The notes under the pieces are model-generated. The model searched no databases, was not told the origin of the DNA, and saw only the letters and a program-made list of their open reading frames with translations. 64,000 nucleotides of DNA from Candidatus Uhrbacteria bacterium (lineage in GTDB: Bacteria > Patescibacteriota > Patescibacteriia > JACQRZ01). The stretch lies in the NCBI GenBank assembly GCA_016206155.1, contig JACQSC010000004.1:217910-281909 (forward strand). The letters run 5' to 3'. Positions within the stretch are counted from its first letter, which is position 1. Every line of letters starts with the position of its first letter. Positions 2,853-60,169 of this stretch are shown here, in pieces. Both the position numbers and the translations under genes were made by a program.

Positions 2853-4699
2853 AGGAGGCCGCGTATTTTTTTAACGATAGCCGCGCCGTTGATATGCTCG
2901 GCGGCAAGGAGTTCGTCGGGTGTACCGCTATGAGGCATTGTGCGTACGGCAAGTGAATGGACGGGTGTTTTTGTGTGAGAGAGGGCGGCTGCTACTGCTT
3001 CGCCGATGCCGCCTTCGGGGAGATGATCTTCTACGGTGATGATCGCCTTTGTTTCTCGTGCTGCTTTTTCCAATGTCTCCATGTCGAGTGGTTTTATTGA
3101 GTAGAGGTCAATGACACGCGTTGAGATTCCTTCATGTTTTAGCGTCTCGTGCGCCGCAAGCGCTTCATGGAGTGTAATGCCCGCCGCAACAATTGTTGCT
3201 CGATCGGTTGGATCTTCTCGAAGTGTCATGCTTCCGCCAATGCGGAATTGGTCATCGGTTGTATAGAGGAGGGGGGTGTCTTTGCGCGTTGTGCGAATAT
3301 AGACAAGGCCGTGAGTTCCAAGCGCGCGCTCGACAAGGCGCTCGCAGGAGATCGCATCTGACGGGTAGAGAACGACACTGTCCAAAAGCGAGCGGAACAA
3401 TCCGATATCTTCAAGGCCCATTTGCGACGCACCGTCCTCGCCGATAGAAACACCCGCATGCGATCCGCAAAACACGATGTCCGAATTGGCATATTGGCAC
3501 ATGCGAATCTGGTCATGCGCGCGGCTGAAAAATGCGGCAAACGTCGAGATGCACGGTTTTTTCCCACGGCGCGAGAGTCCAAGCGCGGCCCCAACCATGT
3601 TTTGTTCCGCGATAAACATCTCAAAGAATCGATCGGGATACGCGTTTTTAAAAAACTCCGCATACGTTGAATTACTCACCTCCGCGTCAAGTACGACCAT
3701 GGCGGGGTATTCTTGTGCAAGACGTACGAGGGCATTGCCATACGCGCGTCGCGTTGCAACAGCTTTATCAGGAGGATACAACACCGGGTCAAGTTGTGAT
3801 GTGGCTTGCTTTTTGCTTAATTCTTGATTCTTAATTCTTGATTCTTGCATCGCCGGTTCTGTAAGTGTGCCACGAATATCATAATCAATCTCACCAAGTT
3901 CTGCGAGCGCTTGTTCATATTCCTCTTGCTTCAATGCTTTTCCGTGCCAACCGTCTTTATTTTCCATGAATGAAATACCATTTCCTTTCAGGGTTTTTGC
4001 AATAATCATCGTTGGCCGATTGGATTGCAATGTATATACCTGTGTATATACATTACAAATTTCCTCTATGGAATGTCCGTCGATCACGTACGTTTTCCAA
4101 CAAAATGCCGCAATGCGTTTTTCATATGTATCACAATTGTGTTCAAGCATCGTTGGACCGCGCTGACCAAGACGATTAACATCAAGGATACCGACAAGAT
4201 TTCCAAGAGAATAGTGGGATGCCAGGGCAAGCGCTTCCCATACCGACCCCTCTGCCATTTCACTATCGCCCAAAAGGATCGTTGTGCGATACGGGAGTTT
4301 ATCGAGGTATTTTGCATTGATCGCCATGCCAACGCCGACGGAAAGTCCCTGGCCCAGTGAACCGGTTGGCGTCTCGGTGTAGGGGAAGTCCATGGTTGGA
4401 TGCCCTTCAAGGCGACTCCCCAGTTTGCGAAGACTTAAGAGTTCATCTTCCGGAATTGCTCCAGCCGCTGCCCACAGTGAATAGAAGAGTGGAGACGCGT
4501 GGCCCTTTGAAAAGATCAGCCGATCGTTGTTGTGGTAAGCCGTATCGTCCTTTTTGAACCTAAAGAATCCGCCAAAGAAAAGAGCGGCCATTAACTCAAC
4601 CGCCGACAGGCTCGATGATGGATGTCCGGATCCCGCTTCTGTCGTTGAGCGAAGAATATAATAACGAAGGAGTTTTGCCAGCTTATCTAAATCATGCAT
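2849..4699 (-). CDS. tkt: transketolase
   Basis: Motifs GHPSSSLSAVELMAALFF, SKGHASPLFYSLWAAAGAI and GSLGQGLSVGVGMAINAKY. The ORF track extends it to 5164, but the most plausible start is the ATG at 4699..4697 (MHDLDKLAKLLRYY...). The upstream extension only reads through palindromic repeats. Confidence 0.9.
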   Translation of the reverse strand: MHDLDKLAKLLRYYILRSTTEAGSGHPSSSLSAVELMAALFFGGFFRFKKDDTAYHNNDRLIFSKGHASPLFYSLWAAAGAIPEDELLSLRKLGSRLEGHPTMDFPYTETPTGSLGQGLSVGVGMAINAKYLDKLPYRTTILLGDSEMAEGSVWEALALASHYSLGNLVGILDVNRLGQRGPTMLEHNCDTYEKRIAAFCWKTYVIDGHSIEEICNVYTQVYTLQSNRPTMIIAKTLKGNGISFMENKDGWHGKALKQEEYEQALAELGEIDYDIRGTLTEPAMQESRIKNQELSKKQATSQLDPVLYPPDKAVATRRAYGNALVRLAQEYPAMVVLDAEVSNSTYAEFFKNAYPDRFFEMFIAEQNMVGAALGLSRRGKKPCISTFAAFFSRAHDQIRMCQYANSDIVFCGSHAGVSIGEDGASQMGLEDIGLFRSLLDSVVLYPSDAISCERLVERALGTHGLVYIRTTRKDTPLLYTTDDQFRIGGSMTLREDPTDRATIVAAGITLHEALAAHETLKHEGISTRVIDLYSIKPLDMETLEKAARETKAIITVEDHLPEGGIGEAVAAALSHTKTPVHSLAVRTMPHSGTPDELLAAEHINGAAIVKKIRGLL

Positions 4700-4802: not shown

Positions 4803-5717
4803 TTAGTGTCCTGGTTGTTCGTTTGGTTTGATGCTGTGTCCCCCAAACTGGTTGCGCAGCATGTTGACGACACGGCAGATATACGGAGGTTTTTCTGATG
4901 AGTGAACTCGGTATTGATACGATCCTTCAATGATTGGAACGTCAACGCCATGCCGCTTTGCCTCTTTGACCGTCCATTCTCCTTCTCCGGTGTGTCCAAT
5001 GATTGAAGCAATATCGCCAAGATCTTCACCGTATGCTTCATATCCACTCTGCGCCCATTCAACGAGGCGGGATTCGATAACGCTGCCATGATTATACAGC
5101 TTACAGACATCAATGAGATTATATTTAAAGGGCGCATTTTTGAGAAGCGCAAATCCTTCCGCAATCGCCTGCATCATGCCGTACTCAATGCCATTGTGAA
5201 TCATTTTTGCGTAATGGCCCGCACCGGCAGGACCAAGGTGGGCGTAATACCCATCATCTTTTGCAATATCTTTAATAAGCGGGAGGAGTTTTTCATAATC
5301 TTCTTTTTCTCCCCCGATCATGAGACAAGCGCCGTTGCGGGCACCGCCGGGTCCGCCGCTCACGCCGACTTCCATAAAATGGACGCCCGCCTCAGTAACT
5401 TTTTTTGCGCGGCGCAGTGTCAATTCATATTGCGAGTTTGCCGCCTCTACGATCATATCACCCGTTGAAAGAAGGGGAACAAGCTCGGCGAGCATATCGT
5501 CAATCACTGCCGAGGGAATCATGCTCCAGATCACGCGGGGAGTCTCCAGTTGTGCGACCACACCCGCATATGAATCGACGACCGTCACGCCAAGCTCGGC
5601 TGTTTTTGCGCGCGCTTCTTCACTGGGATCATAGCCAACGATTTCATGCCCCTTTTCTTTGAGGCGCGCAACCATGTTGTGTCCCATCTTGCCAAGTCCT
5701 AGATAGCCGATCTTCAT
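4803..5717 (-). CDS. gnd: 6-phosphogluconate dehydrogenase (decarboxylating), short form
   Basis: N-terminus MKIGYLGLGKMGHNMVARL, an NAD(P)-binding Rossmann fold, and family-typical motifs. Confidence 0.85.
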   Translation of the reverse strand: MKIGYLGLGKMGHNMVARLKEKGHEIVGYDPSEEARAKTAELGVTVVDSYAGVVAQLETPRVIWSMIPSAVIDDMLAELVPLLSTGDMIVEAANSQYELTLRRAKKVTEAGVHFMEVGVSGGPGGARNGACLMIGGEKEDYEKLLPLIKDIAKDDGYYAHLGPAGAGHYAKMIHNGIEYGMMQAIAEGFALLKNAPFKYNLIDVCKLYNHGSVIESRLVEWAQSGYEAYGEDLGDIASIIGHTGEGEWTVKEAKRHGVDVPIIEGSYQYRVHSSEKPPYICRVVNMLRNQFGGHSIKPNEQPGH

Positions 5718-11756: not shown

Positions 11757-12725
11757 ATGATGCACGAAGCTATTGCAGGTTTTGCAAAACAATTTGCATG
11801 GGAGCCTAAAGTTGAGAGACCAACAAAGAAAAAATTTAAAAGGGTGATCGTCGCGGGCATGGGGGGATCGCATTTGGCGGCAGACCTTCTCAAAAGCGTC
11901 CATAGGGAAATCCATATGAATATCCATAGGGATTATGGCTTGCCGTTTATTGCGCCAAGCGAGCGATCGGACACGCTCGTGATTGCAAGCTCGTATTCCG
12001 GAAACACTGAGGAAACAATCGATGCGTTTAAGGAAGCCGGAAAAAAGGGAGTCGCGCGCGCTGCAATAGCTATTGGAGGCAAACTTGAGAAGGTGGCTCG
12101 CGCCGCGCGAGTGCCGTATGTGCAGATGCCCGATACCGGCATTCAGCCTCGCTCGGCGCTGGGGTTTAGCATCAAAGGACTCGCCGCGCTGATGGAGCTT
12201 TCATCATTTACTATGGAGCTGTCGCGTCTCGCAAAAACATTAAAACCCGCGGCGAAGGAAGCACGAGGGAAAACACTTGCCAGAACACTCAAAGGAACCA
12301 TACCCATGGTCTATGCTTCGACCATGAATGAGGCGGTTGCGTATAATTGGAAGATTAAATGTAATGAGACCGGAAAAATTCCTGCGTTTTATAATGTTAT
12401 TCCAGAGCTTAACCACAATGAGATGACGGGATTTGACCATACGCTCAAGAGTGCGGGGCTTTCAAAAAAGTTTACGGTGTTGTTTCTTGCAGATGATGAT
12501 GATAATCCGCGAGTACAAAAACGCATGGCGATTCTTATAAAGCTTTACCGCAGCAGGGGACTTCAATGCGTTACCGTTCCCTTGAAAGGAGACGGCCGGT
12601 GGATGAAGATATTTTCATCCCTTGTACTTGCCGATTGGATTGCATACTATACGGCACTTTCCTACGGCGCAGAGCCAGAGCAGGTGCCGATGGTTGAGGA
12701 GTTTAAGGAGATGATTGCGCGATAA
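11757..12725 (+). CDS. SIS-domain bifunctional phosphoglucose/phosphomannose isomerase-like
   Basis: Motif VIVAGMGGSHLAADLL, a length of 322 aa, and archaeal-type PGI/PMI architecture. Confidence 0.55.
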   Translation: MMHEAIAGFAKQFAWEPKVERPTKKKFKRVIVAGMGGSHLAADLLKSVHREIHMNIHRDYGLPFIAPSERSDTLVIASSYSGNTEETIDAFKEAGKKGVARAAIAIGGKLEKVARAARVPYVQMPDTGIQPRSALGFSIKGLAALMELSSFTMELSRLAKTLKPAAKEARGKTLARTLKGTIPMVYASTMNEAVAYNWKIKCNETGKIPAFYNVIPELNHNEMTGFDHTLKSAGLSKKFTVLFLADDDDNPRVQKRMAILIKLYRSRGLQCVTVPLKGDGRWMKIFSSLVLADWIAYYTALSYGAEPEQVPMVEEFKEMIAR

Positions 12726-12858
12726 GAACTACTCTATCGGGTTATTGCCCATCGGGACCGGGTATTTTTCTGCTGAAAAATCCCTTAAACTCATGCCGTC
12801 GCATTCCGTATGTCCCTCTGGACAAAAACCCGATAGAGGGCTTCGTAATTTATGGAAA
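12726..12858. repeat. Structured intergenic element 'type A', copy 1: long closing stem plus internal hairpins, exactly filling the gap between convergent genes
   Basis: About 85% identical over ~100 nt to 26479..26613. The terminal stem ctctatcgggtt/aacccgatagag changes in a compensatory way in copy 2. Confidence 0.6.
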
Positions 12859-15798
12859 TTATAAACCGAGTGGCGCAAGGACAGAGGAATTCGGAAGATA
12901 GAACTGGGTCTGCGGAATAATCTCTTTTGGAATGCGGGAATGAGACCACGAGAGTCGAACGCGCGCATCGCCAGAATATTCTGCATAAACAACGCGGATA
13001 TAATAGAGGCGATCGCGCAAAAGCGTTTTTGTCGCTGTGTATTCTTGGGTTACGTTTGAACCTGTTGATATGAGCGGTGCCGCGGTTGGTGAAATGTGTG
13101 TATCGCCGATATAAAGAGCGGCGTGGTCGTCGGCTTGGAGATGGAACGTGTATGTTCCCTCATACTGGGGTTGGAGAAATCCCTCCCAACGAACAGAGTA
13201 GTTGTCTGTCGGAAGGCGCTCATCGACTTCACGTTCGCCCCATGGAAAATTAACTTTTACATCGGTCCGCTCAAAAACCGGATAAGGGAGCGCAACTTTT
13301 TCGGCAGTGTCAGCGCCCCTGTAATACCGTCCGCGCAAACCCGTTCCGTTACCACGCGGGCGGATCGGTTCAGGCGCAGGGTAGAGATATGCGCGGGGTA
13401 CAATTTCACGTGCGCGCCCACCTCGTTCCCAGAGGAGCTGGATGCCGGTTGGTCCGTCAACATCATAGGTTTCAATGCGAATAGGATATTTACCATGGTC
13501 GAGATATTTTGAAACACGATATTCGGTCGGATATGTCGATACCCGTCGCCATTCGTTCATAAGCATTGCGCTATTTTGATCAACCTCTTGAGATCCTTTG
13601 TCCCCGATCCACAAGTGAATACCGTCATCGACTCGTACGGTAAAGGTATATGTTCCTTTTTCCGGCGCCTCAATCCAACCGGTCCAGCGGACGGAGAAGT
13701 GATCGCGGGGAATTGCGGGGTCGGGCGTACCGTCCCCCCAGAGCAAATTAATTGTTGGATCGATTCGCGTAATGCCAAGCAAGGAAAGGCGGTCATCAAT
13801 AAAGTACTCACCCCAGAGGCCGGTTCCCGTTCCGTTCGCGCTACCAGATCCGCTTGCCCCACCAGTTCCGGCAGATGATATATCCGTCTTTGGAAGCGGG
13901 GTTGGATAGAGATGCTTTTTTGAGATGATTTCTCGGGCGGAACCCTTTCGTTGCCAGAACAGCTGAATGCCCGCTGGGCTGTCGAATTCAAAGTATTCCA
14001 CCCGTATCGGATATCGTTGCCCCGCCTCAAACCTTTTTTCCGCTGTATACTCTTCCATATAGTTCGACACGCGCCGCCATTCGTCCATAAGTTTCTCCTC
14101 GTCAATCCAGAGACGAATACCGTCGTCAACCCGCGCGACGATGGTATACGTTCCGCTCTCCGGCGCCTCAATCCAGCCGGTCCAGCGCGCGGAAAAGTGG
14201 TCTGCGTGCACAGCGGGGTCAGGAGCACGTTCGCGCCAGTCAAAGTTGATTGCTTCAGCCGGGTGTTGTGCCTTTAATGTCTCAAAGTTTTCTCCATCAA
14301 AATACTCGCCGAGTAGTCCTGTCCCTTGAAGCTTCGGCACGAGGGTGGCATACAGCGCCTCGCGCGGGACGATGGTGCGCTTGCCGTCAGATCCAGACCA
14401 CTGCAGGTTTATATTCGCAGTTTGGGTGTATTCTGTATACTCGAGCGCTAAAGAATACCGACGGCCCTGCTCAAGAAGAATCGGAAGCGCATGATTTATT
14501 TTTCCCGCGCGCATGCCCGTGGTATCAAGTACCGCATGCCCATCAATCGTAAGTTTTATACGATCGTCAACCCGGCTTGAGAATTGATAAAAGTCTGTCC
14601 GTTGTGCCTCTATTTCCCCGGTCCACTTCACTGAAAAATGATCGCTGTTGACCGGTCCGGTTTTCGGCGATCCGCGCCCCCAATCAAAGTTGATTGTCGG
14701 ATCAAGACGGGAAAAAGCCTGCTGTTCAAAATGTTCCCCGTTGTAGTACAGCCCCGCAAGGCCAGTTCCTTGCTTTTTTGGCTGTTGCTGTGCGCGGAGA
14801 GGAGCATAGAGCGCAGAGCGGGGAATGAGCTCCTTTTCCGGCGAAACAGCGTTTGACCAGAGGAGGCGCGCGCGGGCAACGCCACTTTCTTGGCGATAGG
14901 TCAGCGTGAAAGGATATAGTTTTCCCGCGACGAGAAACACCGACCCGGTTCGCTGTTCTGCCGGACCCTCGGATTGCGTTGATATCTCGGCTTTTCCATC
15001 TTCCCCTTGAAGTGAAAACGCAACGGGTCCGTCCGCGCTCGTATGAAAGCGGTAAAACGTAGATATGCGCGGCTCGATCTCTCCTGACCACGCAACGTCG
15101 AAGCGAAATTTTTCTTTGTTTTGAAAATCGACAGGAAGATCGAGTGAAACCGTTTGATCGGTGCGCGTGACCCGATAGGTCTCTGAATCAATATATTGCG
15201 TGATTGTTGCAAGGGCTCCGCTTCCTTTTCCTGCTGGAAGAAGTGCGGGAAGCGGCTCGGCGGAAAGATAGCGTGACGGAATAATTTCCCATACGCCGTC
15301 TGGTGTGCGCCACCAAAGCTGAACAAGGCCATTGTTCTGGCTGTGGCGTGATTTTAATCTGAGATGATAGGTGCGCCCCAGCTCAAAAAACGATTTCCTC
15401 GAAGAGGTGAATTCATAGGTGCCGGGCGTGCGCACGACAGCATCAGAGGGGGCGCCCTCGATAAGGAGCTCGTCGTTGACCCACAGCGCCGCCGCGCCAT
15501 CGCTAATAATGGTGAAAGCATACGTTCCGGTTGCGGGAGGATGGAGGTCGCCCCTCCACTCGGCTGTAAAAAAATCACTGCCAACCGGCGGGCGATTGGT
15601 CGCGTCCCATCGAAAGGAAATGCGCTCATCGGTGCGCATGGCGCCGATGTCACTGTTTCGTTCGATGCGCGTGATGGGATCGCCCGTGCTGTCATAATAG
15701 ATGCCGCGCAGTCCCGCAGACTCCTCGGCAAAAACGTCGCTTACAGCGGACATGGCAAGAAACAGCGCCAAAAGAAAGATACGTGCAAGATATTTCAT
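12859..15798 (-). CDS. Secreted protein with about five tandem PA14 domains
   Basis: Signal peptide MKYLARIFLLALFLAMSAVS. Repeated GL[RAL]G.Y[YF].....INF.W....P......F.S.RWTG.I.....Y.F....DDG..L.I motifs. Confidence 0.7.
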   Translation of the reverse strand: MKYLARIFLLALFLAMSAVSDVFAEESAGLRGIYYDSTGDPITRIERNSDIGAMRTDERISFRWDATNRPPVGSDFFTAEWRGDLHPPATGTYAFTIISDGAAALWVNDELLIEGAPSDAVVRTPGTYEFTSSRKSFFELGRTYHLRLKSRHSQNNGLVQLWWRTPDGVWEIIPSRYLSAEPLPALLPAGKGSGALATITQYIDSETYRVTRTDQTVSLDLPVDFQNKEKFRFDVAWSGEIEPRISTFYRFHTSADGPVAFSLQGEDGKAEISTQSEGPAEQRTGSVFLVAGKLYPFTLTYRQESGVARARLLWSNAVSPEKELIPRSALYAPLRAQQQPKKQGTGLAGLYYNGEHFEQQAFSRLDPTINFDWGRGSPKTGPVNSDHFSVKWTGEIEAQRTDFYQFSSRVDDRIKLTIDGHAVLDTTGMRAGKINHALPILLEQGRRYSLALEYTEYTQTANINLQWSGSDGKRTIVPREALYATLVPKLQGTGLLGEYFDGENFETLKAQHPAEAINFDWRERAPDPAVHADHFSARWTGWIEAPESGTYTIVARVDDGIRLWIDEEKLMDEWRRVSNYMEEYTAEKRFEAGQRYPIRVEYFEFDSPAGIQLFWQRKGSAREIISKKHLYPTPLPKTDISSAGTGGASGSGSANGTGTGLWGEYFIDDRLSLLGITRIDPTINLLWGDGTPDPAIPRDHFSVRWTGWIEAPEKGTYTFTVRVDDGIHLWIGDKGSQEVDQNSAMLMNEWRRVSTYPTEYRVSKYLDHGKYPIRIETYDVDGPTGIQLLWERGGRAREIVPRAYLYPAPEPIRPRGNGTGLRGRYYRGADTAEKVALPYPVFERTDVKVNFPWGEREVDERLPTDNYSVRWEGFLQPQYEGTYTFHLQADDHAALYIGDTHISPTAAPLISTGSNVTQEYTATKTLLRDRLYYIRVVYAEYSGDARVRLSWSHSRIPKEIIPQTQFYLPNSSVLAPLGL

Positions 15799-20125: not shown

Positions 20126-20933
20126 AGTGATGGGGTCAGTAATGCAGTAATGGGGTCAGTGCAGTAATGGGGTCAGGAGCCATTATTTTTAAGTTATGAT
20201 ATGCTATAATCATGCCACGAACTATACGATCCGATATTGCCGACATGAGCTATCACGTTATTAATCGAGCCAATGCTCGTGTGCAGATTTTTTCTACCCA
20301 GCAAGAATTTCGACAATTCGAAGACGCTCTTTCAGAAGCGCGTGAAAAGACTGGGATGCGTATTTATGCATACGTTATCATGCCAAACCACTGGCATTTA
20401 GTTGTTTCACCATGTGCTGATGGAGATCTTAAACGATTTATGGCGTGCCTTACCATGACGCATACACAACGCTGGCACAGAGACCACAATTCCGTTGGCA
20501 CGGGGCATCTTTATCAGGGGCGATATAAAGCGTTTATTGTTGGTACAGATGACTATTTTATTACAGTTTGTCGTTATGTTGAACAAAATCCACTACGCGC
20601 AAACCTTACACCTCGTGCGGATGAGTGGAGGTGGGGCAGTCTCTGGAGAAGACAGTTTGGGTCAAGAGAAGAAAAAGCAATGCTTTCATCATGGATAACG
20701 GAAGCGCCACGATCATATCTTCAGTGGGTGAACGAGCGCGATGAAGATGATCGCCTTGAACGTATTCGTACATGTGTGAATAGGGGGCGCCCCTTTGGCT
20801 CTCCGACTTGGACAGAAGAAATAGTTAAGCGTTTTAAGTTAGAATCAACCCTTCGTTCTGTCGGGAGGCCATGGGATAAAAATAATGGCTCCTGACCCCA
20901 TTAACCTTTGAACTGACCCCATTAACCTTTGAA
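20126..20933 (+). mobile_element. REP-RAYT unit: inverted REP-like repeats flanking an IS200-like Y1 transposase
   Basis: Three copies of GCAGTAATGGGGTCAGT at 20126..20177 and two copies of CTGACCCCATTAACCTTTGAA at 20892..20933, in opposite orientations. Confidence 0.7.
20212..20895 (+). CDS. REP-associated tyrosine transposase (IS200/IS605-like Y1 TnpA)
   Basis: HuH motif PNHWHLVV and catalytic Tyr context YQGRYK. Confidence 0.8.
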   Translation: MPRTIRSDIADMSYHVINRANARVQIFSTQQEFRQFEDALSEAREKTGMRIYAYVIMPNHWHLVVSPCADGDLKRFMACLTMTHTQRWHRDHNSVGTGHLYQGRYKAFIVGTDDYFITVCRYVEQNPLRANLTPRADEWRWGSLWRRQFGSREEKAMLSSWITEAPRSYLQWVNERDEDDRLERIRTCVNRGRPFGSPTWTEEIVKRFKLESTLRSVGRPWDKNNGS

Positions 20934-25632: not shown

Positions 25633-26067
25633 ATGGGGAAAACACCTTTCATTTTTTTTTCACTCCTCCTCGCGTTGTTTTTTATCCTATCGCCGGTATT
25701 TGCGGAAAATCCGCTCCAGGCAGGCACCACGCGCACTACTATTCTTGGGAATTACGTCCACGGGGAAACTACTCAGTTTAATTGGTTTACAAAAGGATTT
25801 GGCGTCGATGATGTTTCCGATGTTGCGTGGCCCAATACCATTGCACGAAGGATAGTTAACATCGTGTTTAGTTTTTTGGGCATTGTTACCGTTATCGTTA
25901 TTATCTATGCCGGCTTCCTCTGGATAACCGCCGGCGGGGAAGAGGAAAAGGCAAAGCAGGGCCGCACGCTCCTATTCCAGGCGTTTATTGGTTTGGTTAT
26001 TATTTTATCAGCCTATCTTGTTTCCTACTTTACCATAGACCAGCTCGTTAAAGCGATTATGAAATGA
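25633..26067 (+). CDS. Pilin-like paralog P10
   Basis: Core IYAGFLWITAGGEEEKAKQGRTLLFQAFIGLVIILSAY. Confidence 0.65.
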   Translation: MGKTPFIFFSLLLALFFILSPVFAENPLQAGTTRTTILGNYVHGETTQFNWFTKGFGVDDVSDVAWPNTIARRIVNIVFSFLGIVTVIVIIYAGFLWITAGGEEEKAKQGRTLLFQAFIGLVIILSAYLVSYFTIDQLVKAIMK

Positions 26068-26474
26068 GGTATATTTTTACATTTTTTTTTGTTGCCATAA
26101 GCATTGCTATGATTGCGAGCTTGCCGACGTTTGCGGCAACCAGCCAATTGAAGGATGCCGCACTTTTTGGCGACAACTCTCAATTCAAAGAGTTTTTGGA
26201 AAAATGGGGCGTAACAAAGGATAAACCTCCCACAGAACCAGGCACAATTGCCCAGCGCATTGTTGCGGTTGTCTTTAGCTTTCTTGGCATTGTTGCCGTT
26301 ATTGTGATGATCTATGCGGGCTTTCTTTGGATGACCGCCGGCGGGGAGGAAGAGAAGGCAAAACAGGGCCGCACGCTCCTGTTTCAGGCGTTTATCGGAT
26401 CACTCATCGTGCTTGCGTCGTATTCAGTCACATATTTTGTACTATATATGCTCACTCTCTCAGTCTCTCCCTAG
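26064..26474 (+). CDS. Pilin-like paralog P11
   Basis: Core IYAGFLWMTAGGEEEKAKQGRTLLFQAFIGSLIVLASY. Confidence 0.65.
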   Translation: MRYIFTFFFVAISIAMIASLPTFAATSQLKDAALFGDNSQFKEFLEKWGVTKDKPPTEPGTIAQRIVAVVFSFLGIVAVIVMIYAGFLWMTAGGEEEKAKQGRTLLFQAFIGSLIVLASYSVTYFVLYMLTLSVSP

Positions 26475-26478
26475 CTTT

Positions 26479-26613
26479 GAATTACGAAACTCCTCTGTAT
26501 CGCGTATTGTCCATAGGGACCGGGTATTTTTCTGCTGAAAAATCCCTTAAACTCGGGCCGTCGCCCTCCGTATGTCCCTCTGGACAACAACCCGATACAG
26601 AGTTTCGTAATTC
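26479..26613. repeat. Structured intergenic element 'type A', copy 2
   Basis: Outer stem gaattacgaaactc/gagtttcgtaattc; inner stem ctctgtatcg/cgatacagag; core highly similar to 12733..12838. Confidence 0.6.
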
Positions 26614-28375
26614 AAGGCTCCCTAGGAATGAAAATAATCATTTCATCGTCGCGATAGGCCTCGCTAAATTCTGGAATTCCCAGAATTTTTTCTTGCAGCC
26701 CTTCATTGAGGTGCGTGATAACGACTGCCGACGGGTTAAATGTTGCGACAAGCTTCTCGGTTTCTGCGCGTTCGGCTCGAGGCGTGCAAGCAAAAAAGAG
26801 TGATCGCGCATCATGCTTTGAGTCTAAAGACGACGAGGCGGCGGTGCACAGCCCTCGATATCCGAACGTTTCTGCAAGATCATTGCCTTGCGAAAACGCG
26901 GTGTACTTCTTTGCTCGCTCAGGATTTTTTTCATACAAGAAGCGGGGATCAAGGCCGGAAACATAGCCATACTCGGGGGCATGATAGTAGAACAGGGGAA
27001 AGTCATCCCATCGATTGTGGACAATGCGTCCGCCCGCCGGAATGGTATCTGCAAGCCAGCGCATGCCGTTAGCATACTGAGAAAAACGATAGCCGCTTTG
27101 AAAATCAGCGGTAACGGACGAGATGCTTGCGCCGATAATTACGGGCGCCGCAAAGAAAAAATAAAGCACGATCATGCCGCGCGCCGTTCGCGGAGAGCGA
27201 AGCGATTCTTTGATATATCCCCAGAGGTGCAGAAAAAGTTCTTTTGAAAAGAGCGGGGCAAGGACAAGGCTTGAGAACAATGTCGCAAGCGGCGCGAAAT
27301 ATTCGCCATAGCGCCGCGATTTAAGCGTGAGCGCAAAAAAGAGAACGGTCATGACGAACATGAACCACTGCGCATAGGTGCGGCGCAAAGGGGGGGTGCG
27401 GAAGACCGCCACAAAGAGCCCGGGAAACAAGAAGGCGCAAAGGGAGAATACAAGCAGCATGAGTGTCGGCCCATGAAGCGGAATGAACGAGACGCCGGCA
27501 GAATACCATTCACTTCCGACCGGAACGTCGGTTAAGATGTTTACAATTGCGATCTTGAATGTTTGGATCCAGTAAAAGAAGACGTTGGTTGGAAAATACG
27601 GATTGATGATAAGACCGGCAAGAGCGCCGGAGAGCGATGCAAGAGGAAGTGCTACGTTTTTTTGTGAGAAAAGACGCGCAACGATATTGCAACTTGCAAC
27701 TTTTAATTTGCAACTTTCAGTCGGAGAGCCCTTAAAGTTTAAAGTAGAAAGTTGAAATTTTTTTGTATCAATTGATATGCGAAAATCAGAGAAGGCGCGC
27801 ACGATCCAGGCGATGGTCGCTGACAACGGGAGTAATGGCCATCCGGCGTAGAGCCAGACATAGAGGAATGAAAGGCCAAAAAGATGAGCCGGGCGATTTT
27901 TTAGGATTGCATAGATGCCTGCAAAAAAAACGATGAGCGAGACAGCGGGGATTTTTGCAAGGTTTATGCGGAAAAGAAACACGCTGTTAAGCGCCAAGAG
28001 CACAAGAAAAAAAAGAGCGCAGGAGCGCGACTGATGGGTGGCGCGGCGCAAGAGCCAGTAAAAGAATGCAAGAAACAGCGAGGCAAAAATAACCGTTGAA
28101 ATCTTGATGCCAATCAAGGGGTTGAAAAACGTAACAAAGGGAATAAGGAGAACGTGGTAGAGAAAATGATGATCAATAAAAACGTCGGACAGCGCTGTGT
28201 CGGGAAGGGCGGAAAAGGAAATAATCGGCCCGCGCACCATGTCTGCCGCGATGCGCGCATGATAAAATGAGTCTGGGTCTGGGAAGAATGGGTGTAGCTG
28301 GAGAAGAGAAAGTAACAGAATGCTGGCAAGAAATACCGGCACATACTCAAATTTTCGCAAAATATAAAGAATCAT
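26612..28375 (-). CDS. ArnT/PMT-like GT-C fold polytopic membrane protein
   Basis: DPDSFYHARIAADM loop motif after TM1 and more than 10 hydrophobic helices. Confidence 0.45.
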   Translation of the reverse strand: MILYILRKFEYVPVFLASILLLSLLQLHPFFPDPDSFYHARIAADMVRGPIISFSALPDTALSDVFIDHHFLYHVLLIPFVTFFNPLIGIKISTVIFASLFLAFFYWLLRRATHQSRSCALFFLVLLALNSVFLFRINLAKIPAVSLIVFFAGIYAILKNRPAHLFGLSFLYVWLYAGWPLLPLSATIAWIVRAFSDFRISIDTKKFQLSTLNFKGSPTESCKLKVASCNIVARLFSQKNVALPLASLSGALAGLIINPYFPTNVFFYWIQTFKIAIVNILTDVPVGSEWYSAGVSFIPLHGPTLMLLVFSLCAFLFPGLFVAVFRTPPLRRTYAQWFMFVMTVLFFALTLKSRRYGEYFAPLATLFSSLVLAPLFSKELFLHLWGYIKESLRSPRTARGMIVLYFFFAAPVIIGASISSVTADFQSGYRFSQYANGMRWLADTIPAGGRIVHNRWDDFPLFYYHAPEYGYVSGLDPRFLYEKNPERAKKYTAFSQGNDLAETFGYRGLCTAASSSLDSKHDARSLFFACTPRAERAETEKLVATFNPSAVVITHLNEGLQEKILGIPEFSEAYRDDEMIIFIPREP

Positions 28376-28430
28376 ATGATGGAATCATACGATTCTTTTG
28401 TTCATTGAGCAAATGTCCTGTCGTTCTGGG

Positions 28431-28547
28431 GGCGTACGGAGTTTGATGCAATTCAAGGCGTCGCCGAGAAACGCAGTAAGGCGTACACAGCAGTACGGTG
28501 TCGAGTATCGCAGGCGACAACGCAGAAGTGCGCTAACTCCGTACGCC
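28431..28547 (-). repeat. Structured element 'type B', copy 1 (sense strand is minus, downstream of gene 28552..29322)
   Basis: Terminal stem ggcgtacggagtt/aactccgtacgcc. The core aligns at about 80% identity with the reverse complement of 30150..30269. Confidence 0.55.
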
Positions 28548-28551
28548 CTCG

Positions 28552-29322
28552 CTACTCCGCGAAGGGGCTCAGTTCGGAGTACAGCATATGCTGCGCTGAA
28601 ACGGTCTCTATTTTTTCCGGATCGTCACCACTGCTGACAAAGACAAACATGCCCTCTTTCATCTGATCGAGAGATCCCGGTTCGGGTGCGAAGAGCGGTG
28701 CGGTAAGATTGTCCTTTTCCCGCGGGTTTTGATAAGTATATTCGGTGTCAGCGCTCACGCGGACAACAAAGGCCTTGGCCTGTCTTGGCTTTTCTTCACC
28801 TCTCTCGAGGGGAAGAGGAGGTAGGAGCTCTTGCACGATGACGACGTCTTTCTCTTTGGAAAGAATTGTTCCGTAGAACCCAAACTCTTCTTGTTCGGGA
28901 ATGCTATCATTTTGCGCCACAGTTGAAGGAAGCGTAGGCGTGGCTGGGTTATTCCCTGATAGCGGCGCCGCATAAGAGTATTGCGAGGATTGAAACTTGG
29001 CAACGATAGGAGGAAGAATCACAAAGCCCAAGAGCAGCCCAAGTGTAATGGTACCCGCAAGACACACAACACCTCCGTAGAGAAAGCACTCAGTTGATGT
29101 TATTGCCCGCTGTTTTGCCTGCACACGAATGTGGGGGGCGGACGGTGCGGATTTGGGAGGCGCCGCAGGAGGCATGACATCTGAGACTGTGGTGGAAGGA
29201 GTTTTTTTCTTTCGCGCAAGTGGCGCGCGTCGAGGCGCCCGCTTTTTCTTTGGACGTTCTTTTGTTGGTTCTGCGGTAACGGACGGCGCGGATTGCGTCG
29301 GAGTTGTTTTGCGACGAGGCAT
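28552..29322 (-). CDS. hypothetical membrane-anchored protein with a basic N-terminus
   Basis: 256 aa, K/R/P-rich N-terminus, one TM segment, and no recognisable motifs. Confidence 0.4.
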   Translation of the reverse strand: MPRRKTTPTQSAPSVTAEPTKERPKKKRAPRRAPLARKKKTPSTTVSDVMPPAAPPKSAPSAPHIRVQAKQRAITSTECFLYGGVVCLAGTITLGLLLGFVILPPIVAKFQSSQYSYAAPLSGNNPATPTLPSTVAQNDSIPEQEEFGFYGTILSKEKDVVIVQELLPPLPLERGEEKPRQAKAFVVRVSADTEYTYQNPREKDNLTAPLFAPEPGSLDQMKEGMFVFVSSGDDPEKIETVSAQHMLYSELSPFAE

Positions 29323-29443
29323 AAAATAATTTACGATTTTAGATTTGCAATTTAAGAATTATAGCACATTATCTTTATATTATCACGTGCGGGTGTGCAT
29401 AACCTTTACAGCGCGCGCAGAGCGTGTACTATATTGGGGTATG

Positions 29444-29579
29444 CCCCGCACTTAAGAACGATTGTTGCTCATTAATTCATCCATACGTTTATGATGCACG
29501 CCGCTATTATTATTGATCAAGCGATTTTCTCCGTGTATACACGACGCAACACGAGGATGAATCGTTCTTAAGTGCGGGG
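29444..29579. repeat. MITE-like element with 20-bp perfect terminal inverted repeats, inserted at the ruvA start codon
   Basis: CCCCGCACTTAAGAACGATT at 29444..29463 and AATCGTTCTTAAGTGCGGGG at 29560..29579, flanked by direct repeats TATG (GGGGTATG). Confidence 0.5.
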
Positions 29580-29580
29580 T

Positions 29581-30147
29581 ATGATTGGCTATCTTCAAGG
29601 AACTATTATTTTCAAGGAAGACTCATTGATCATTCTTCTCGTTGGCGGTGTTGGGTATCGTGTATTTCTTCTTGAAAGAAAAATAAACGCACACGCAGTC
29701 CACAGTGAGTGTTCTCTATTTATCTTCCCGTATGTTCGCGAGGGTAATGTGGAGCTTTATGGATTTGACCACCATGATGACCTTCACGTATTCGAGCGCC
29801 TTATCTCAGTTTCGGGAGTGGGTCCCAAGTCGGCGTTTGCAATTTTGCGCCTAGCGTCATCAGATGATATTTGCATTGCCATTCAGCGCGGAGACGCCGA
29901 TCTTCTTAAAAAGGTTTCCGGCGTCGGGAACAAAACCGCACAGCGCATTATCATTGAATTGAAGAATGTATTTGACCGTACACGCGAGGAGGTGGGGAGT
30001 GTCGGAATGGATTCCCAAGACCTTGTTGATGCATTGGTGCGCCTTGGCTATTCACGCGTCGCTGCGCGAGAAGCGCTCTCTCATGTTCCAGCAACTGTCG
30101 AAACACCGTCAGAGCGCATACGCCACGCCTTGAAATATATTCAATGA
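29581..30147 (+). CDS. ruvA: Holliday junction DNA helicase RuvA
   Basis: N-terminus MIGYLQGTII and the helix-hairpin-helix region VSGVGPKSAFAIL...VSGVGNKTAQRIIIEL. Confidence 0.85.
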   Translation: MIGYLQGTIIFKEDSLIILLVGGVGYRVFLLERKINAHAVHSECSLFIFPYVREGNVELYGFDHHDDLHVFERLISVSGVGPKSAFAILRLASSDDICIAIQRGDADLLKKVSGVGNKTAQRIIIELKNVFDRTREEVGSVGMDSQDLVDALVRLGYSRVAAREALSHVPATVETPSERIRHALKYIQ

Positions 30148-30149
30148 TA

Positions 30150-30269
30150 CGACTTACGCAGTTGGCACATTTCTTTGTTGCCGCCTCCGGTACTCGACAC
30201 CGTACCACAGAGTACGCCTTACTCCGTTCCTCGGCGGCGCCTAGAACTGCACTCAACTGCGTAAGTCGT
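30150..30269 (+). repeat. Structured element 'type B', copy 2 (sense strand is plus, downstream of ruvA)
   Basis: Terminal stem cgacttacgcagttg/caactgcgtaagtcg, with internal hairpins ggtac-ucgacacc-guacc and gagua-cgccu-uacuc. Confidence 0.55.
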
Positions 30270-30313
30270 GTTAATGAATCAATTTTGTATTCAGTAGCGC
30301 ACACCAACAATAC

Positions 30314-30385
30314 GCCCCCGTAGTTTAATGGATAAGACGCAGGCCTCCGAAGCCTGAAATAGAGGTTCGATTCCTCTCGGGGGCA
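30314..30385 (+). tRNA. tRNA-Arg (anticodon CCG)
   Basis: Cloverleaf read by eye: acceptor gcccccg/cgggggc, anticodon loop cuCCGaa, T-arm gguucgauucc. Confidence 0.75.
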
Positions 30386-53122: not shown

Positions 53123-53437
53123 ATGCCATCAGAAACGCGCGCATGCCAGAACCGTAATCATCAGTGCACGAACGCGTTCAAAGTGTTGAGCGTGGATCTT
53201 GATTTTTATCGAGCGCATCATCTGCCGATCCACAGACTATGCCCTAATTGCCGCCATTATGAACGTCTCGCAAAACGAGAACCGGTTCAGCTCTGGAGCC
53301 GAACCTGCATGTGCGCAGGCGCGCCTTCTCATGCGCATGGCACGTTGCCTTGTACCGTATCATTTCAAACGTCGTACGCACTCTATCGACCGGAGATTAT
53401 CTATTGCGAAGCGTGCTATCAGCAGGAGGTTGTGTAA
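53123..53437 (+). CDS. Cys-rich zinc-ribbon family, miniature member A (degenerate N-ribbon fused to the C-terminal module)
   Basis: Sequence ELxFYRAHHLPIHRLCPNCRHYERL...CTVSFQTSYALYRPEIIYCEACYQQEVV. Confidence 0.5.
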   Translation: MPSETRACQNRNHQCTNAFKVLSVDLDFYRAHHLPIHRLCPNCRHYERLAKREPVQLWSRTCMCAGAPSHAHGTLPCTVSFQTSYALYRPEIIYCEACYQQEVV

Positions 53438-53502
53438 GTATTTGACAATGTCGCACGGCGGCGTATACTATGGAGTGTTATTAATAATTAACAACAAAAC
53501 AT

Positions 53503-53769
53503 ATGGCACGTACCGTATTTACCACAACCATCTCGCTTCCTAAAACAATGGCCGCAACATTGAAGCAAATGGAGCGGGAAGAGGGACGTACAACCAGCGG
53601 GCTTATACAAGAAGCGCTTCGGCATTATGAGCGCTTTCATCGTTTCGAGAGTGGTCGGCGACACATAAGCTGGAACATCCTTAAAAAAGATCTTGCACGC
53701 ATTTCAAAGGCTGGGCGACAAAATGTCAACCTCGCGGATGCTATTGCACGAGATCGACTCTCTCATTAG
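53503..53769 (+). CDS. ribbon-helix-helix (CopG-like) antitoxin
   Basis: N-terminus TTISLPKTMAATLKQMEREEGRTTSGLIQEALRHY. Confidence 0.6.
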   Translation: MARTVFTTTISLPKTMAATLKQMEREEGRTTSGLIQEALRHYERFHRFESGRRHISWNILKKDLARISKAGRQNVNLADAIARDRLSH

Positions 53770-53778
53770 GGTAGCAGT

Positions 53779-54231
53779 ATGATGATATCACATCTGTACA
53801 TCCTTGACGCATCCGTTATTGTTAAGTTATTCAATAAGGAATGTGAAGAATCGACAGAGGAAGCCGAAGATATTCTCGATGCCGCGCACCGCGGCATTCA
53901 TCTTTTGGCGACATGCGATCTCGCCGTACATGAAGTATTCAATGTTCTGATCCGTTCGAAGGGGGTGAGAGGGCGCGATCTTGAACTTGCTGTTGAGCGA
54001 TTTTTTGCTCTTCCTTGCCAGCTTCTTCAAACAGACGCGTCGTGCGCGGCGCTCGCGGCGATGATTGCCACGGAATCAGGCATCACATTTTACGACGCCG
54101 TGTATTTGGCTCAGACGCAGAGGCGCAACGCGCCGCTTATCACTGCGAATCCCAAGCATCAACGATCGTCGCGGGGGATAGAGGTTATCTCACTCGATCA
54201 GTGGTTTTCATTCAAGCAAAAAACAGCATAG
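53779..54231 (+). CDS. PIN-domain (VapC-like) toxin
   Basis: Motifs YILDASVIVK, E at aa 52 in HEVFNV, ITFYDAVYLAQT. Confidence 0.6.
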   Translation: MMISHLYILDASVIVKLFNKECEESTEEAEDILDAAHRGIHLLATCDLAVHEVFNVLIRSKGVRGRDLELAVERFFALPCQLLQTDASCAALAAMIATESGITFYDAVYLAQTQRRNAPLITANPKHQRSSRGIEVISLDQWFSFKQKTA

Positions 54232-54246
54232 CGAGGAGATGACGCT

Positions 54247-54726
54247 ATGAACAGTGAACAAAGAATCTGCCAGAACTGTAAACAATCCTTCATTATAGAA
54301 TCGGAGGACTTTATGTTTTACGAAAAGATGAAAGTCCCGCCGCCGACGTGGTGTCCCGAGTGCACGAATGTAAGTTTTTCATTGAATCTTCAAAATTGCA
54401 TGGACTGTTTTGGGTGCGTGAATTTGAAGAATAAACAGCACTGTATTTTTAATGAGCAGTATACGAAAGAAGAATACGAACAAAAGATGAAGGAATTTGA
54501 TTTCGGCTCCTACTCGTTTGTTCAAGAGATGAAAAAGAAGGTTTCTGAACTTTCATTGAAGTATCCACGACGATATGTTGAGGGGCTGAATAATGAACAG
54601 GTGGTCGGTGACTACATTTTTAATTCAAAGAATGTAGCACAGTGCACCGAAGTGACCGATTGCGAGAACTGCAAACCACCCATTGAAATATCAAAAGTGT
54701 TACCTATGTATGCGTCTTGTACATGA
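54247..54726 (+). CDS. Cys-rich zinc-ribbon family, truncated member B (N-terminal part only)
   Basis: Sequence CQNCKQSFIIESEDFMFYEKMKVPPPTWCPEC...CFGCVNLKNKQHCIFNEQYTKEEYE. Confidence 0.55.
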   Translation: MNSEQRICQNCKQSFIIESEDFMFYEKMKVPPPTWCPECTNVSFSLNLQNCMDCFGCVNLKNKQHCIFNEQYTKEEYEQKMKEFDFGSYSFVQEMKKKVSELSLKYPRRYVEGLNNEQVVGDYIFNSKNVAQCTEVTDCENCKPPIEISKVLPMYASCT

Positions 54727-54765
54727 TTTTGACAAACGCACAATGCTTTGTTAGTATAGAGCAAT

Positions 54766-55023
54766 ATGGAACAGAGATTGCTCAATTACGTTGTTATATT
54801 GGAGTCCGATATTCGAACGGGGAGCGATGAGCCCTGCTATAGTATTTATTGCCCCTCGTTGGGACTCTCTGATAGCGGTGATACTATTGAGGATGCGCTT
54901 GAAAATATGAAAGACCTTATTGTATTTCACCTCGATTCTCTTCGCAAAGAGCAGGAACCGATCCCTACGGCGGGTATTGCTCAACCCCTTATTGCAACAG
55001 TGCAAGTCGCCTATCCGAGTTAA
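54766..55023 (+). CDS. hicB: HicB-family antitoxin
   Basis: Motif YCPSLGLSDSGDTIEDALENMKDLIVFHLD. Confidence 0.6.
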   Translation: MEQRLLNYVVILESDIRTGSDEPCYSIYCPSLGLSDSGDTIEDALENMKDLIVFHLDSLRKEQEPIPTAGIAQPLIATVQVAYPS

Positions 55024-55027
55024 TGGT

Positions 55028-55249
55028 ATGCCGAAACTCGCAGAGGTTATGCCAAAGGACCTTTTGAAAGCTCTTCTTAAGGGTGGTTTTGTCATTACAA
55101 ATCAATCCGGAAGTCATGTGCGTCTCCATCATTTTGATGGACGAAAGACGACCCTTGCGGTTCACGCAAAACCGCTTCCGAAAGGAACGCTCGCGTCGAT
55201 TCTCCGTCACACCCAGATTTCCAGAGAAGAACTTGAACATTTATTATGA
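55028..55249 (+). CDS. hicA: HicA-family toxin
   Basis: Sequence MPKDLLKALLKGGFVITNQSGSHVRLHHFDGRKTTLAVHAKPLPKGTLASIL. Confidence 0.6.
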   Translation: MPKLAEVMPKDLLKALLKGGFVITNQSGSHVRLHHFDGRKTTLAVHAKPLPKGTLASILRHTQISREELEHLL

Positions 55250-57039
55250 AGTCAGCAGAAGATAGTATCTGCCAGAACTGTAAACAATCCTTCATTATAG
55301 AACCGGAGGATTTTGCGTTTTATGAAAAGATGAACGTCCCGCCGCCGACGTGGTGCCCCGAGTGCAGGCTCATTCGGCGACTGGCGTTTGATAATCTGCG
55401 AACCATCTATAGCGGCGGGAGGTGCGTAAAATGCGAAAAGGGGATTATTACATCTTTGCCGCCAAACACTGAGCGGACCGTCTATTGCAACACTTGCTGG
55501 TGGGGTGATTCGTGGGATGGTTTTGAGTATGGTCGGGATGTTGATTTTGATAAACCATTTCTCCAGCAAGTGAAAGAGCTCATGGCTGTTGTTCCGCAGA
55601 TGGCGCGCGCAAACGACGAGCCGACACTGGTAAACTCTGACTACACCATGAACGTTGGACATCTCAAAAATTGCTATCTCGTATTTCATGCTGATTTTGA
55701 TGAGGATTGCGCTTATTGCGACACCATAGATGGTGTGAAGGATTCTCTTGATTGCAGCCGATTGAGCGGATGCGAATTATGCTATGAGTGTGTCAATCTG
55801 AAAACCTGCTACAAGGCGGTTACTTGCGTGGATTGTGAGAACTCAAATGACATTATGTTCTGCCGTGATTGCATCGGGTGTACGAATTGCTTTGGTTGTG
55901 TTGGGTTGCGCAATAAAGAGTATTGTTATTTCAATGAACAGCTTACCCGCGAAGAGTACGAGAAGCGGATGGCGGAATTTCGTCACGGATCATATACGGC
56001 AATGGAAGAGATGAGAGGACGAGCCCGGGAATTTTGGGAAACCATGCCGCGCCGGTATATGCACGGGAAAAACAATGAAGACGTTTCTGGCGACTATATT
56101 GATCGCTCAAAAAATACACACCATTCATTTCAAGTTTCGCAATGCGAGGACAGCAAGTTCATTGCCATTGTCGGTATCCAACCGACAAAGGATTCCTATG
56201 ATTACTATTCTTGGGGAAGCGGCGTTTCGCGTATCTATGAATGCGCCGCGGTTGGCGAAAATGCCGACAGGGTGAAATTTACATTTATGTCATGGCCGTC
56301 GTGCAGTGAGGTTGAGTATTCGATGTATGCAGTGAGCTCATCAAACTGTTTTGGGTGTGTTGGGATACGGAACAAGAACTATTGCATTCTCAACAAGCAA
56401 TATACGAAAGAAGAATATGAGATGCTGGTGCAAAAAATAAAACACCACATGAACGATATGCCCTATATTGATGCGGTTGGCCGCGAATATCGGTATGGAG
56501 AATTTTTTCCGACAGAACTGTCGGCATTTGCCTATAACGAGAGCCGGGTACAAGAATATTTTCCGCTCACAAAAGAAGAAGCGCTTGAAAAGGGGTATGC
56601 GTGGCGCGATAGAGTAGGGGGAACTGTTTTACCAACCATTCATTGCACTGGTTTGCCTGATGACATTCACGATGTTCCCGATACGATAACCAAGGAGATC
56701 ATTGAATGTACGCATATCGAGCAGTGCAACCATGAATGCAAGCTGGTATTCAAGGTCATAGCGCAAGAGCTCGCGTTTTACAAAAAAATGAACATCCCTC
56801 TCCCGCGCCTTTGTTTTAATTGCCGCTACGCAGAACGTATCAAGCTTCGCAACCCCATGAAACTCTGGTTGGGCCAGTGCCAATGCGGGGGAGAAAAGTC
56901 GCAGAGCGGTGTCTATAAAAATACTGCACAACACACTCACGGCGCGTCACCATGCGCTGTGACATTTCAGACATCATATGCCCCGGACAGGCCGGACATT
57001 GTCTACTGCGCCGAGTGCTATCAGCAGGAGGTTCTTTGA
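55246..57039 (+). CDS. Cys-rich zinc-ribbon family, full-length member C (597 aa)
   Basis: N-terminus CQNCKQSFIIEPEDFAFYEKMNVPPPTWCPEC. Internal Cys-periodic repeats with two CFGCVGxRNKxYC units. C-terminus ELAFYKKMNIPLPRLCFNC...CAECYQQEVL. Confidence 0.6.
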   Translation: MKSAEDSICQNCKQSFIIEPEDFAFYEKMNVPPPTWCPECRLIRRLAFDNLRTIYSGGRCVKCEKGIITSLPPNTERTVYCNTCWWGDSWDGFEYGRDVDFDKPFLQQVKELMAVVPQMARANDEPTLVNSDYTMNVGHLKNCYLVFHADFDEDCAYCDTIDGVKDSLDCSRLSGCELCYECVNLKTCYKAVTCVDCENSNDIMFCRDCIGCTNCFGCVGLRNKEYCYFNEQLTREEYEKRMAEFRHGSYTAMEEMRGRAREFWETMPRRYMHGKNNEDVSGDYIDRSKNTHHSFQVSQCEDSKFIAIVGIQPTKDSYDYYSWGSGVSRIYECAAVGENADRVKFTFMSWPSCSEVEYSMYAVSSSNCFGCVGIRNKNYCILNKQYTKEEYEMLVQKIKHHMNDMPYIDAVGREYRYGEFFPTELSAFAYNESRVQEYFPLTKEEALEKGYAWRDRVGGTVLPTIHCTGLPDDIHDVPDTITKEIIECTHIEQCNHECKLVFKVIAQELAFYKKMNIPLPRLCFNCRYAERIKLRNPMKLWLGQCQCGGEKSQSGVYKNTAQHTHGASPCAVTFQTSYAPDRPDIVYCAECYQQEVL

Positions 57040-57092
57040 CTCTATTTTGATATTTTGACATGAAGGCTCATTCATGATAGCGTTTAGGTAGT

Positions 57093-57660: not shown

Positions 57661-57678
57661 TACGATTGAGCGTGTTAT

Positions 57679-59475: not shown

Positions 59476-59521
59476 CAAGGGGTATTTGTGTGCTACGGTA
59501 AAAGTATAAAAAAGTATCTCT

Positions 59522-60162: not shown

Positions 60163-60169
60163 TATGCCG

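Follow-up and report, generated by a model that had tools for sequence, protein, structure and literature searches.

Two copies of a hairpin-forming element of about 123 nucleotides (nt), each following the stop codon of a gene, lie within a stretch of 64,000 nt from the genome of a Candidatus Uhrbacteria bacterium (GenBank assembly GCA_016206155.1, contig JACQSC010000004.1, positions 217,910 to 281,909), which at its full length we call the window. Most likely they belong to a dispersed family of non-autonomous, palindromic mobile elements, similar in kind to miniature inverted-repeat transposable elements (MITEs) and ERIC sequences, that inhabits genomes of the candidate phyla radiation (CPR, Patescibacteria). 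The feature is not a conserved non-coding RNA (ncRNA) or 3' untranslated region (3'-UTR) gene residing at fixed loci, since syntenic sites in relatives are empty, the target of one copy is duplicated, and a 99%-identical copy is found within unrelated flanks. CPR genomes are tiny and compact, and our literature searches turned up no account of small mobile repeats in them, neither of the MITE type nor of the repetitive extragenic palindromic (REP) type; the family is best read as new.

The clearest view of an insertion is offered by the site behind ruvA. Two relatives, the Logan contigs L027 and L028, show the same order of pilins, a 588-aa gene, a 255-aa gene, ruvA, tRNA-Arg and rpoB as the window, with RuvA proteins 78-79% identical to that of the window and coding DNA about 75-86% identical. 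Both are empty at the ruvA stop, where CCAATGA runs directly into ATCAATTTTG (at greater length, AAATATATCCAATGA into ATCAATTTTGT), whereas in the window TTCAATGA and ATCAATTTTG are parted by an insert; in the fuller context, AAATATATTCAATGA is followed by an insert running from TACGAC to GTCGTGTTAATGA and then by ATCAATTTTGT. The comparison thus delimits copy 2 as an insert of 125-130 nt between duplicated AATGA containing the ruvA stop. Judged from the aligned sites, the ruvA stop was the point of insertion of copy 2, with at least 5 bp of target (AATGA) duplicated. Three nucleotides, GTT at 30270-30272 between the end of the stem and the right AATGA, can be assigned to neither stem nor duplication. 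Since L027 and L028 group together to the exclusion of the window, parsimony alone formally gives equal weight at this site to an insertion on the branch leading to the window and to a loss in the ancestor shared by the two relatives; the near-identity of copy 2 to a copy elsewhere decides for a recent gain.

That copy is found at L012:1673-1795 in a Candidatus Uhrbacteria metagenome-assembled genome (MAG), JACQWH01, and over its 123 nt matches copy 2 at 99.2% identity; another copy of the same MAG, L002, is 93.5% identical. The three loci share no similarity in their flanks and their neighbouring genes are unrelated, while between window genes and their JACQWH01 orthologues identity drops to 44-53% at the protein and about 64-70% at the DNA level. 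Near-identical copies in unrelated loci of so distant a genome establish that the element moves and spreads horizontally. If true, an element common to Uhrbacteria, other Patescibacteria and Saccharibacteria, with a copy 99% identical between genomes of ~45% protein identity, would mean that small mobile DNA circulates among these episymbionts, and its presence could help to detect recent exchange of DNA as well as contaminated bins. Flanking direct repeats accompany the three young copies, namely AATGA at copy 2, TGATTAACT at L002 and TGATA at L012, and are absent from older ones. Within this young subfamily conservation of the outermost stem, P1, is 100%, against differences of 8-9% in the interior, as is expected of ends bound by a transposase. 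An empty counterpart for L002 was sought via PilM homologues, of which the nearest relative, at 59% identity, is too distant to be used.

The site of copy 1 tells a similar story. L028 is empty here and has a 54-nt spacer only, whereas L027 carries a family member with an unrelated outer stem (GCAACCCATTCAGCT/AGCTGGATGGGTTGC); the interiors of the window and L027 copies are 71% identical and each of the two outer stems is fully paired. At the syntenic, more distant loci L029-L031 no copy was found. The 3' site of the orthologous pilin is occupied by a copy of this family (type B) in L027 and by a different hairpin family (type C) in the window.

Remnants of the element are also seen in L027. 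An internally deleted copy at 4440-4530 adjoins a full one at 4530-4652, and a fragment of the 5' arm, TACGACTTACACACTTGGCA, remains at 5538-5560 just upstream of ruvA. These remnants suggest repeated insertion and decay in the same spacers.

How widespread is the family? We know of 11 copies altogether, from Uhrbacteria, other Patescibacteria and Saccharibacteria. Species-representative genomes were scanned with the shared core CTCGACACCGTAC-N5-9-GTACGCC, which gave five matches with the same hairpin architecture and 18 others that are chance occurrences inside coding sequences from unrelated phyla. A metagenome scan added two real copies and one doubtful match, L024 (17 bits, E 0.13). With R1, a covariance model built from nine copies, full copies score 90-132 bits, and L027:2594-2717, which was outside the training set, is recovered at 117.8 bits. 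The first-pass annotation of the window, made from the letters alone, had staked its candidate on such a model finding more copies and on the comparison with Rfam, and on both counts it has fared well: further copies exist in other genomes, and over the window no Rfam 15 family reaches its gathering score apart from three tRNAs. For the two elements themselves nothing convincing appeared in Rfam at E<=10, the best sub-threshold matches having E>2. Plasmids, phages and viral contigs gave no family match save one chance 17-mer in a phage open reading frame (ORF).

Within the 64-kb window R1 finds copies 1 and 2 only, and a motif search for extra copies yielded chance matches only, for example within a pilT-like gene at 49720. 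The 15-mer TACTCGACACCGTAC common to both copies occurs exactly twice in the window, while shuffles average 0.83 matches when up to three mismatches are allowed. The repeat shows several hallmarks of a MITE: it is 123 nt long, non-coding (the element holds no conserved ORF) and present in multiple copies, every copy has terminal inverted repeats, and sites are found both filled and empty.

The two inverted copies of about 80% identity described in the first pass are borne out by a repeat search, which gives arms of 109 nt (28435-28543 and 30155-30263) that are 80% complementary; in a pairwise alignment the mean column identity across the element is 85%. In copy 1 the outer stem is formed by GGGCGTACGGAGTT and AACTCCGTACGCCC, and the 14-bp closing stem (28430-28443/28535-28548) is a perfect inverted repeat. 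P1 of copy 2 pairs ACGACTTACGCAGTTGG with CCAACTGCGTAAGTCGT and has a single bulge; the closing stem ACGACTTACGCAGTTG/CAACTGCGTAAGTCGT lies inside 30133-30164/30254-30285. At least three stem positions have changed on both sides between the copies with pairing kept, so that the earlier description of closing stems that differ and yet pair was correct as well. As RNA, copy 2 folds with -56.3 kcal/mol (z -7.4) and copy 1 with -53.4 kcal/mol (z -5.0), and for either copy none of 200 shuffles folds as well.

Going inwards from P1, which measures 14-18 bp in every copy, the family shares a short stem with conserved bulges (GCRC.TTYC/GAAY.TGCA) and an internal loop with an invariant GTT on its 5' side and GCCT on its 3' side (YGTT/GCCT in copy 2), neither of which was part of the search pattern. 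The following stem, P2, is variable: in Uhrbacteria it measures 6 bp, while Saccharibacteria and L026 extend it to as many as 18 bp. It is topped by an apical module, CTCG-ACAC-CGTAC-(variable 4-7-nt loop)-GTACG-CCTTAC, whose core CTCGACACCGTAC-loop-GTACGCCTTAC is common to the family copies. The module is invariant or nearly so across the copies from Uhrbacteria, other Patescibacteria and Saccharibacteria, a conservation that is partly ascertainment, as the apex motif served as search pattern; the copy L027:4530-4652, found by synteny, has a diverged apex. In L027 the apical 5-bp stem carries a compensatory change from C-G to T-A.

In alignment A6, which was fitted to the covariance model, standard pairs make up 91.5% of the pair cells of ten copies, compared with 30-40% once the 3' partners have been shifted by 1-3 columns, and 30 of the 39 pairs have changed on both sides. 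The observed covariation score was reached by none of 500 shuffles, and covariation is present in all helices, interior ones included. The whole element is a single long hairpin whose stems are free to change but stay paired, while sequence itself is conserved in the apex and in two internal-loop motifs. Of the structured family that the first-pass annotation had proposed, the conserved hairpin thus survives, and the fixed ncRNA or 3'-UTR locus is lost to the empty sites. Nor does covariation in such an element prove selection on RNA, for which it had been taken to argue: transposon ends that are bound by one protein co-vary too, and correction of quasi-palindromes can restore pairing. The requirement for a hairpin is real, and candidate causes are the recognition of folded DNA or RNA by a mobilising enzyme, a joint evolution of the two ends with a single protein that binds them, or a role at the RNA level. 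This element and other post-stop hairpin families of the window could be mis-called as ncRNA genes from the covariation of their stems.

Where does the element insert? All ten scorable copies are in sense to the abutting upstream gene, the sense strand being the one that carries ACACCGTAC...GTACGCCTTAC; what had been noticed for both window copies, a position in sense 3' of a gene, can thus be generalised to the family. In nine of the ten the outer stem starts at most 5 nt from the upstream stop or overlaps it, the exception being L012 with 26 nt, and TGA, TAA and TAG are all represented among these stops. The first base of copy 2 comes directly after the ruvA stop (TGA 30145-30147), and copy 1 begins 3 nt past the TAG stop of the minus-strand gene 28552-29322. 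To our knowledge this sense-only, just-after-stop pattern is sharper than in comparable elements. The upstream genes are mutually unrelated and comprise ruvA, two hypotheticals, an aldehyde dehydrogenase, a type IV secretion system (T4SS) pilin, a pseudopilin, rpsG (S7) and a T2SSE ATPase. Since the downstream genes are equally unrelated across copies, a riboswitch or leader was ruled out.

A terminator of the canonical kind does not fit either. A consensus scan found no intrinsic terminator at either copy, no U-tract or T-run follows P1, and the Saccharibacteria copy directly after rpsG has more same-strand ORFs beyond it; a canonical terminator was ruled out by the missing U-tract. A promoter scan found no promoter-like sites adjoining either copy. 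GC skew is positive over the whole window and the two copies are mutually inverted, hence orientation follows transcription and not the direction of replication, which argues against a replication-strand-specific insertion as in IS200/IS605. The antisense strand has the lower RNA folding energy in seven of eight copies, by 2-15 kcal/mol, and of the positions that deviate from Watson-Crick pairing 11 are wobble-compatible on the antisense and 4 on the sense strand when an invariant U-G pair is excluded, a difference that is suggestive but not significant. One reading of these observations is that the weaker hairpin of a sense transcript makes sense insertions better tolerated within operons, which fits the orientation bias, the antisense fold and the rpsG copy alike.

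Table 1. Positions of the hairpin elements, their targets and neighbouring genes in the window, and family copies from other genomes.
Feature	Position	Strand	Details
Hairpin element copy 1	28428-28550	-	123 nt; covariance model R1 130.1 bits
Hairpin element copy 2	30148-30270	+	123 nt; R1 131.8 bits, E 1e-28
Apical module copy 1	28476-28505	-	motif comparison with family
Apical module copy 2	30193-30222	+	CTCG-ACAC-CGTAC-(6-nt loop)-GTACG-CCTTAC
Left target duplicate AATGA	30143-30147	+	includes ruvA stop TGA
Right target duplicate AATGA	30273-30277	+	comparison with empty sites
256-aa lineage-specific protein gene	28552-29322	-	no Pfam match; orthologues in L027, L028, L029
ruvA	29581-30147	+	Pfam RuvA_N, HHH_5, RuvA_C; copy 2 adjoins in sense
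tRNA-Arg(CCG)	30314-30385	+	downstream of copy 2
Y1/HUH transposase-like gene, 227 aa	20212-20895 (region 20128-20925)	+	Pfam Y1_Tnp E 1e-18
L002, L012			copies in Candidatus Uhrbacteria MAG JACQWH01; core scan
L009			copy in a Patescibacteria MAG; core scan
L005, L020			copies in one uncultured Saccharibacteria MAG; core scan
L026 and truncated L025			copies from metagenome scan

How might such a family work? We envisage that a trans-acting enzyme mobilises the element, probably by a staggered cut, and that it would recognise the terminal inverted repeat P1, the folded apex, or both. Once inserted, the element would be transcribed as the 3' UTR or as an intercistronic part of the mRNA of the upstream gene. 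The post-stop, sense-only pattern would then mostly reflect those insertions that a compact genome tolerates: a position behind the stop would spare the downstream promoter and ribosome-binding site, and a sense transcript would form the weaker hairpin. The hairpin may also be of help, protecting the 3' end of the mRNA.

Several observations weigh against a mobile family of this kind. An autonomous partner, that is a transposase gene within the same ends, was found neither in the window nor in viral contigs. The target duplications measure 5-9 bp with no fixed register to the stem ends and are missing from older copies, which is not what a single DDE transposase typically leaves behind. In comparisons between subfamilies and phyla it is the apex that is best conserved and not the termini, the reverse of classical MITEs, which is in part ascertainment. 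Copy number appears low, with about 1-2 per genome by the exact core pattern and two in 64 kb. The argument from 99% identity assumes that two JACQWH01 contigs, JACQWH010000008 and JACQWH010000044, were binned correctly. At the copy-1 site, finally, an ancestral insertion followed by loss in L028 would formally be indistinguishable from two independent insertions.

Known families offer partial parallels. ERIC sequences, also called IRU, are imperfect palindromes of about 127 nt in Enterobacteriaceae and Vibrio. Like the present elements, they form one long hairpin of similar size with a conserved central part and encode no transposase; they are confined to intergenic positions within transcribed regions, they differ in location between related species, and their orientation to the transcript matters. 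Unlike them, the family described here is hosted by CPR genomes, is strictly in sense, abuts the stop, has outer stems that differ between subfamilies, and duplicates 5-9 bp where ERIC duplicates TA. We noticed no resemblance in sequence to the ERIC consensus, a comparison made without a tool. The Correia/NEMIS elements of Neisseria and RUP of Streptococcus are MITEs and as such likewise short, non-coding and multi-copy, with terminal inverted repeats, target-site duplication, filled and empty sites, and a hairpin RNA that is co-transcribed with its neighbours, as would be the case here. In contrast to these, our family has no known partner insertion sequence with matching ends, no fixed length of duplication, its highest conservation across subfamilies at the apex and internal loops, and an apparently low copy number per genome.

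Could the same observations be accounted for otherwise? A bolder and, in our view, unlikely variant is a structure-specific CPR mobile element, in which an enzyme would recognise the module of apex and internal loops, either in folded single-stranded DNA or in the transcript, and insertion would be coupled to the termination of transcription or translation, homing in sense to the first few nucleotides after any stop and moving between distant CPR lineages and phyla. If the post-stop pattern were due to mechanism and not to selection, it would represent a new targeting principle. Possible, if on balance doubtful, is a cis-acting RNA selected by the host, be it a stabiliser of mRNA 3' ends against exonucleases, a processing site for RNase III, or an atypical terminator or attenuator, all of which would be compatible with a mobile origin. 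The strict sense orientation in ten of ten copies and the position right after the stop in nine of them would suit such a role, as would loop sequences conserved across phyla and covariation that extends to the interior helices. To this can be added the copies of the window and L027 at one intergenic site, whose unrelated outer stems are both paired; if the two are orthologous, pairing has been maintained in place. Yet close relatives with the same genes have empty sites, so any function is dispensable, and the upstream genes have nothing in common. The lack of a U-tract and the ORFs that follow the rpsG copy make a strong terminator unlikely, and a more stable antisense strand in seven of eight copies is odd for a function of the sense RNA. 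That better-folding strand, with its surplus of wobble-compatible positions (11 vs 4 without the invariant pair), could be taken to encode a small RNA of its own, transcribed antisense to the neighbouring gene. This is very improbable: neither copy has a sigma-70-like promoter next to it on that strand, the unrelated flanks leave room for an internal promoter only, the wobble counts do not differ significantly, and the copies are insertions at sites that are empty in relatives.

Mobilisation on folded single-stranded DNA by a REP-associated Y1 tyrosine transposase (RAYT), as for the REP doublets known as REPINs, has to be weighed because the window encodes a RAYT-like protein with HUH and Y motifs that is framed by inverted repeat arrays. 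IS200/IS605 Y1 transposition makes no target duplication, unlike what is seen here. REP doublets form hairpins of ~100 nt, comparable to the ~120 nt of our element, and the non-conserved wobble positions lean to one strand, although not significantly. REPs are palindromic extragenic repeats (PMC3733652; PMC2817692) and in other phyla are found mostly downstream of coding regions (PMC3733652), again as observed here. However, the 12-nt unit that flanks the RAYT-like gene, TAATGGGGTCAG, is dissimilar to the element and occurs nowhere else in the window, the arms of the element are not small stem-loops of the REP type, and there is no conserved GTAG/CGTC tag in alignments A5 and A6, the ends reading ACGAC, GGGCG, AGGAC, GCAAC, GGTCC, GACCA and GTGAG. 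Orientation, moreover, tracks transcription and not the replication strand. We therefore judge a REPIN-like origin improbable. Hardly credible is an integron attC-type site, in which the folded bottom strand at the 3' end of a gene cassette is the substrate of recombination. Such sites are likewise imperfect palindromes of the right size that lie 3' of ORFs in one orientation, with a bottom strand that folds better. But here the order of the boxes is reversed, the stems having the form CAGTTG...CAACTG with GTT first and not RYYYAAC...GTTRRRY, and the centre is conserved and the base variable, the opposite of attC. The insert holds no cassette ORF and the target is duplicated; the neighbours are core genes (ruvA, tRNA, rpoB, rpsG), and there is no integrase among the genes examined.

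Further candidates were discarded. The template or variable repeat of a diversity-generating retroelement is ruled out, as the copies, none of which falls within a coding sequence, do not differ specifically at adenines. Signal recognition particle RNA, 6S, 5S and Y RNA had been considered from shape and are excluded by the missing Rfam match, the multiple copies and the insertion. P1 cannot be a host terminator stem that was invaded by the core, for the empty site has no P1 and the same P1 occurs in three copies at unrelated loci.

The surroundings of ruvA, whose product matches an NCBI Candidatus Uhrbacteria RuvA at 100% identity, hold further differences to the relatives. In L028 (2211-2288) and L027 (6151-6228) the stretch from the ruvA stop to tRNA-Arg includes ~61 nt with a promoter-like TTCACT...TATACT; these are missing from the corresponding part of the window (30278-30313), where 19 unrelated nt take their place, and tRNA-Arg follows 43 nt downstream of copy 2. 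Judged from these spacers, the tRNA-Arg of the window may depend on read-through from ruvA across the hairpin. Upstream of ruvA, between a promoter-like site (29405-29432) and the ruvA ATG, lies another hairpin, type A (29441-29582), with a 30-nt terminal inverted repeat (ATGCCCCGCACTTAAGAACG.../...CGTTCTTAAGTGCGGGGTAT). Neither L027 nor L028 has it at this position, and TATG appears to have been duplicated, whereby the ruvA start codon was recreated.

The type C hairpins, at about 26473-26620 and about 12723-12860, are 89% identical over 113 nt, and their outer stems differ and still pair. Both start at or overlap the stops of plus-strand genes, a pilin (26064-26474) and phosphoglucose isomerase (11757-12725). 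The RAYT-like protein of 227 aa, with the motifs HWH and YVEQNP, has as its best NCBIfam match the REP-associated tyrosine transposase, at 68 bits (cut-off 80). Its gene has three direct 12-nt units upstream and two inverted ones downstream, together with a perfect 27-nt inverted repeat (20165-20191/20877-20903), a RAYT-like layout in a CPR genome. Between 18954 and 26474 extends a long array of small paralogues with T4SS_pilin/TrbC-like domains and many internal direct repeats (D1, D3, D12, D14), which is conserved in L027, L029, L030 and L031. Diverged families of direct repeats, 50-140 nt long, 63-91% identical and about 0.5-2.5 kb apart, occupy 53336-60521; they fall within the large plus-strand ORFs 55246-57039 and 57679-59475 and look like paralogues or repeated domains with Cys-rich motifs.

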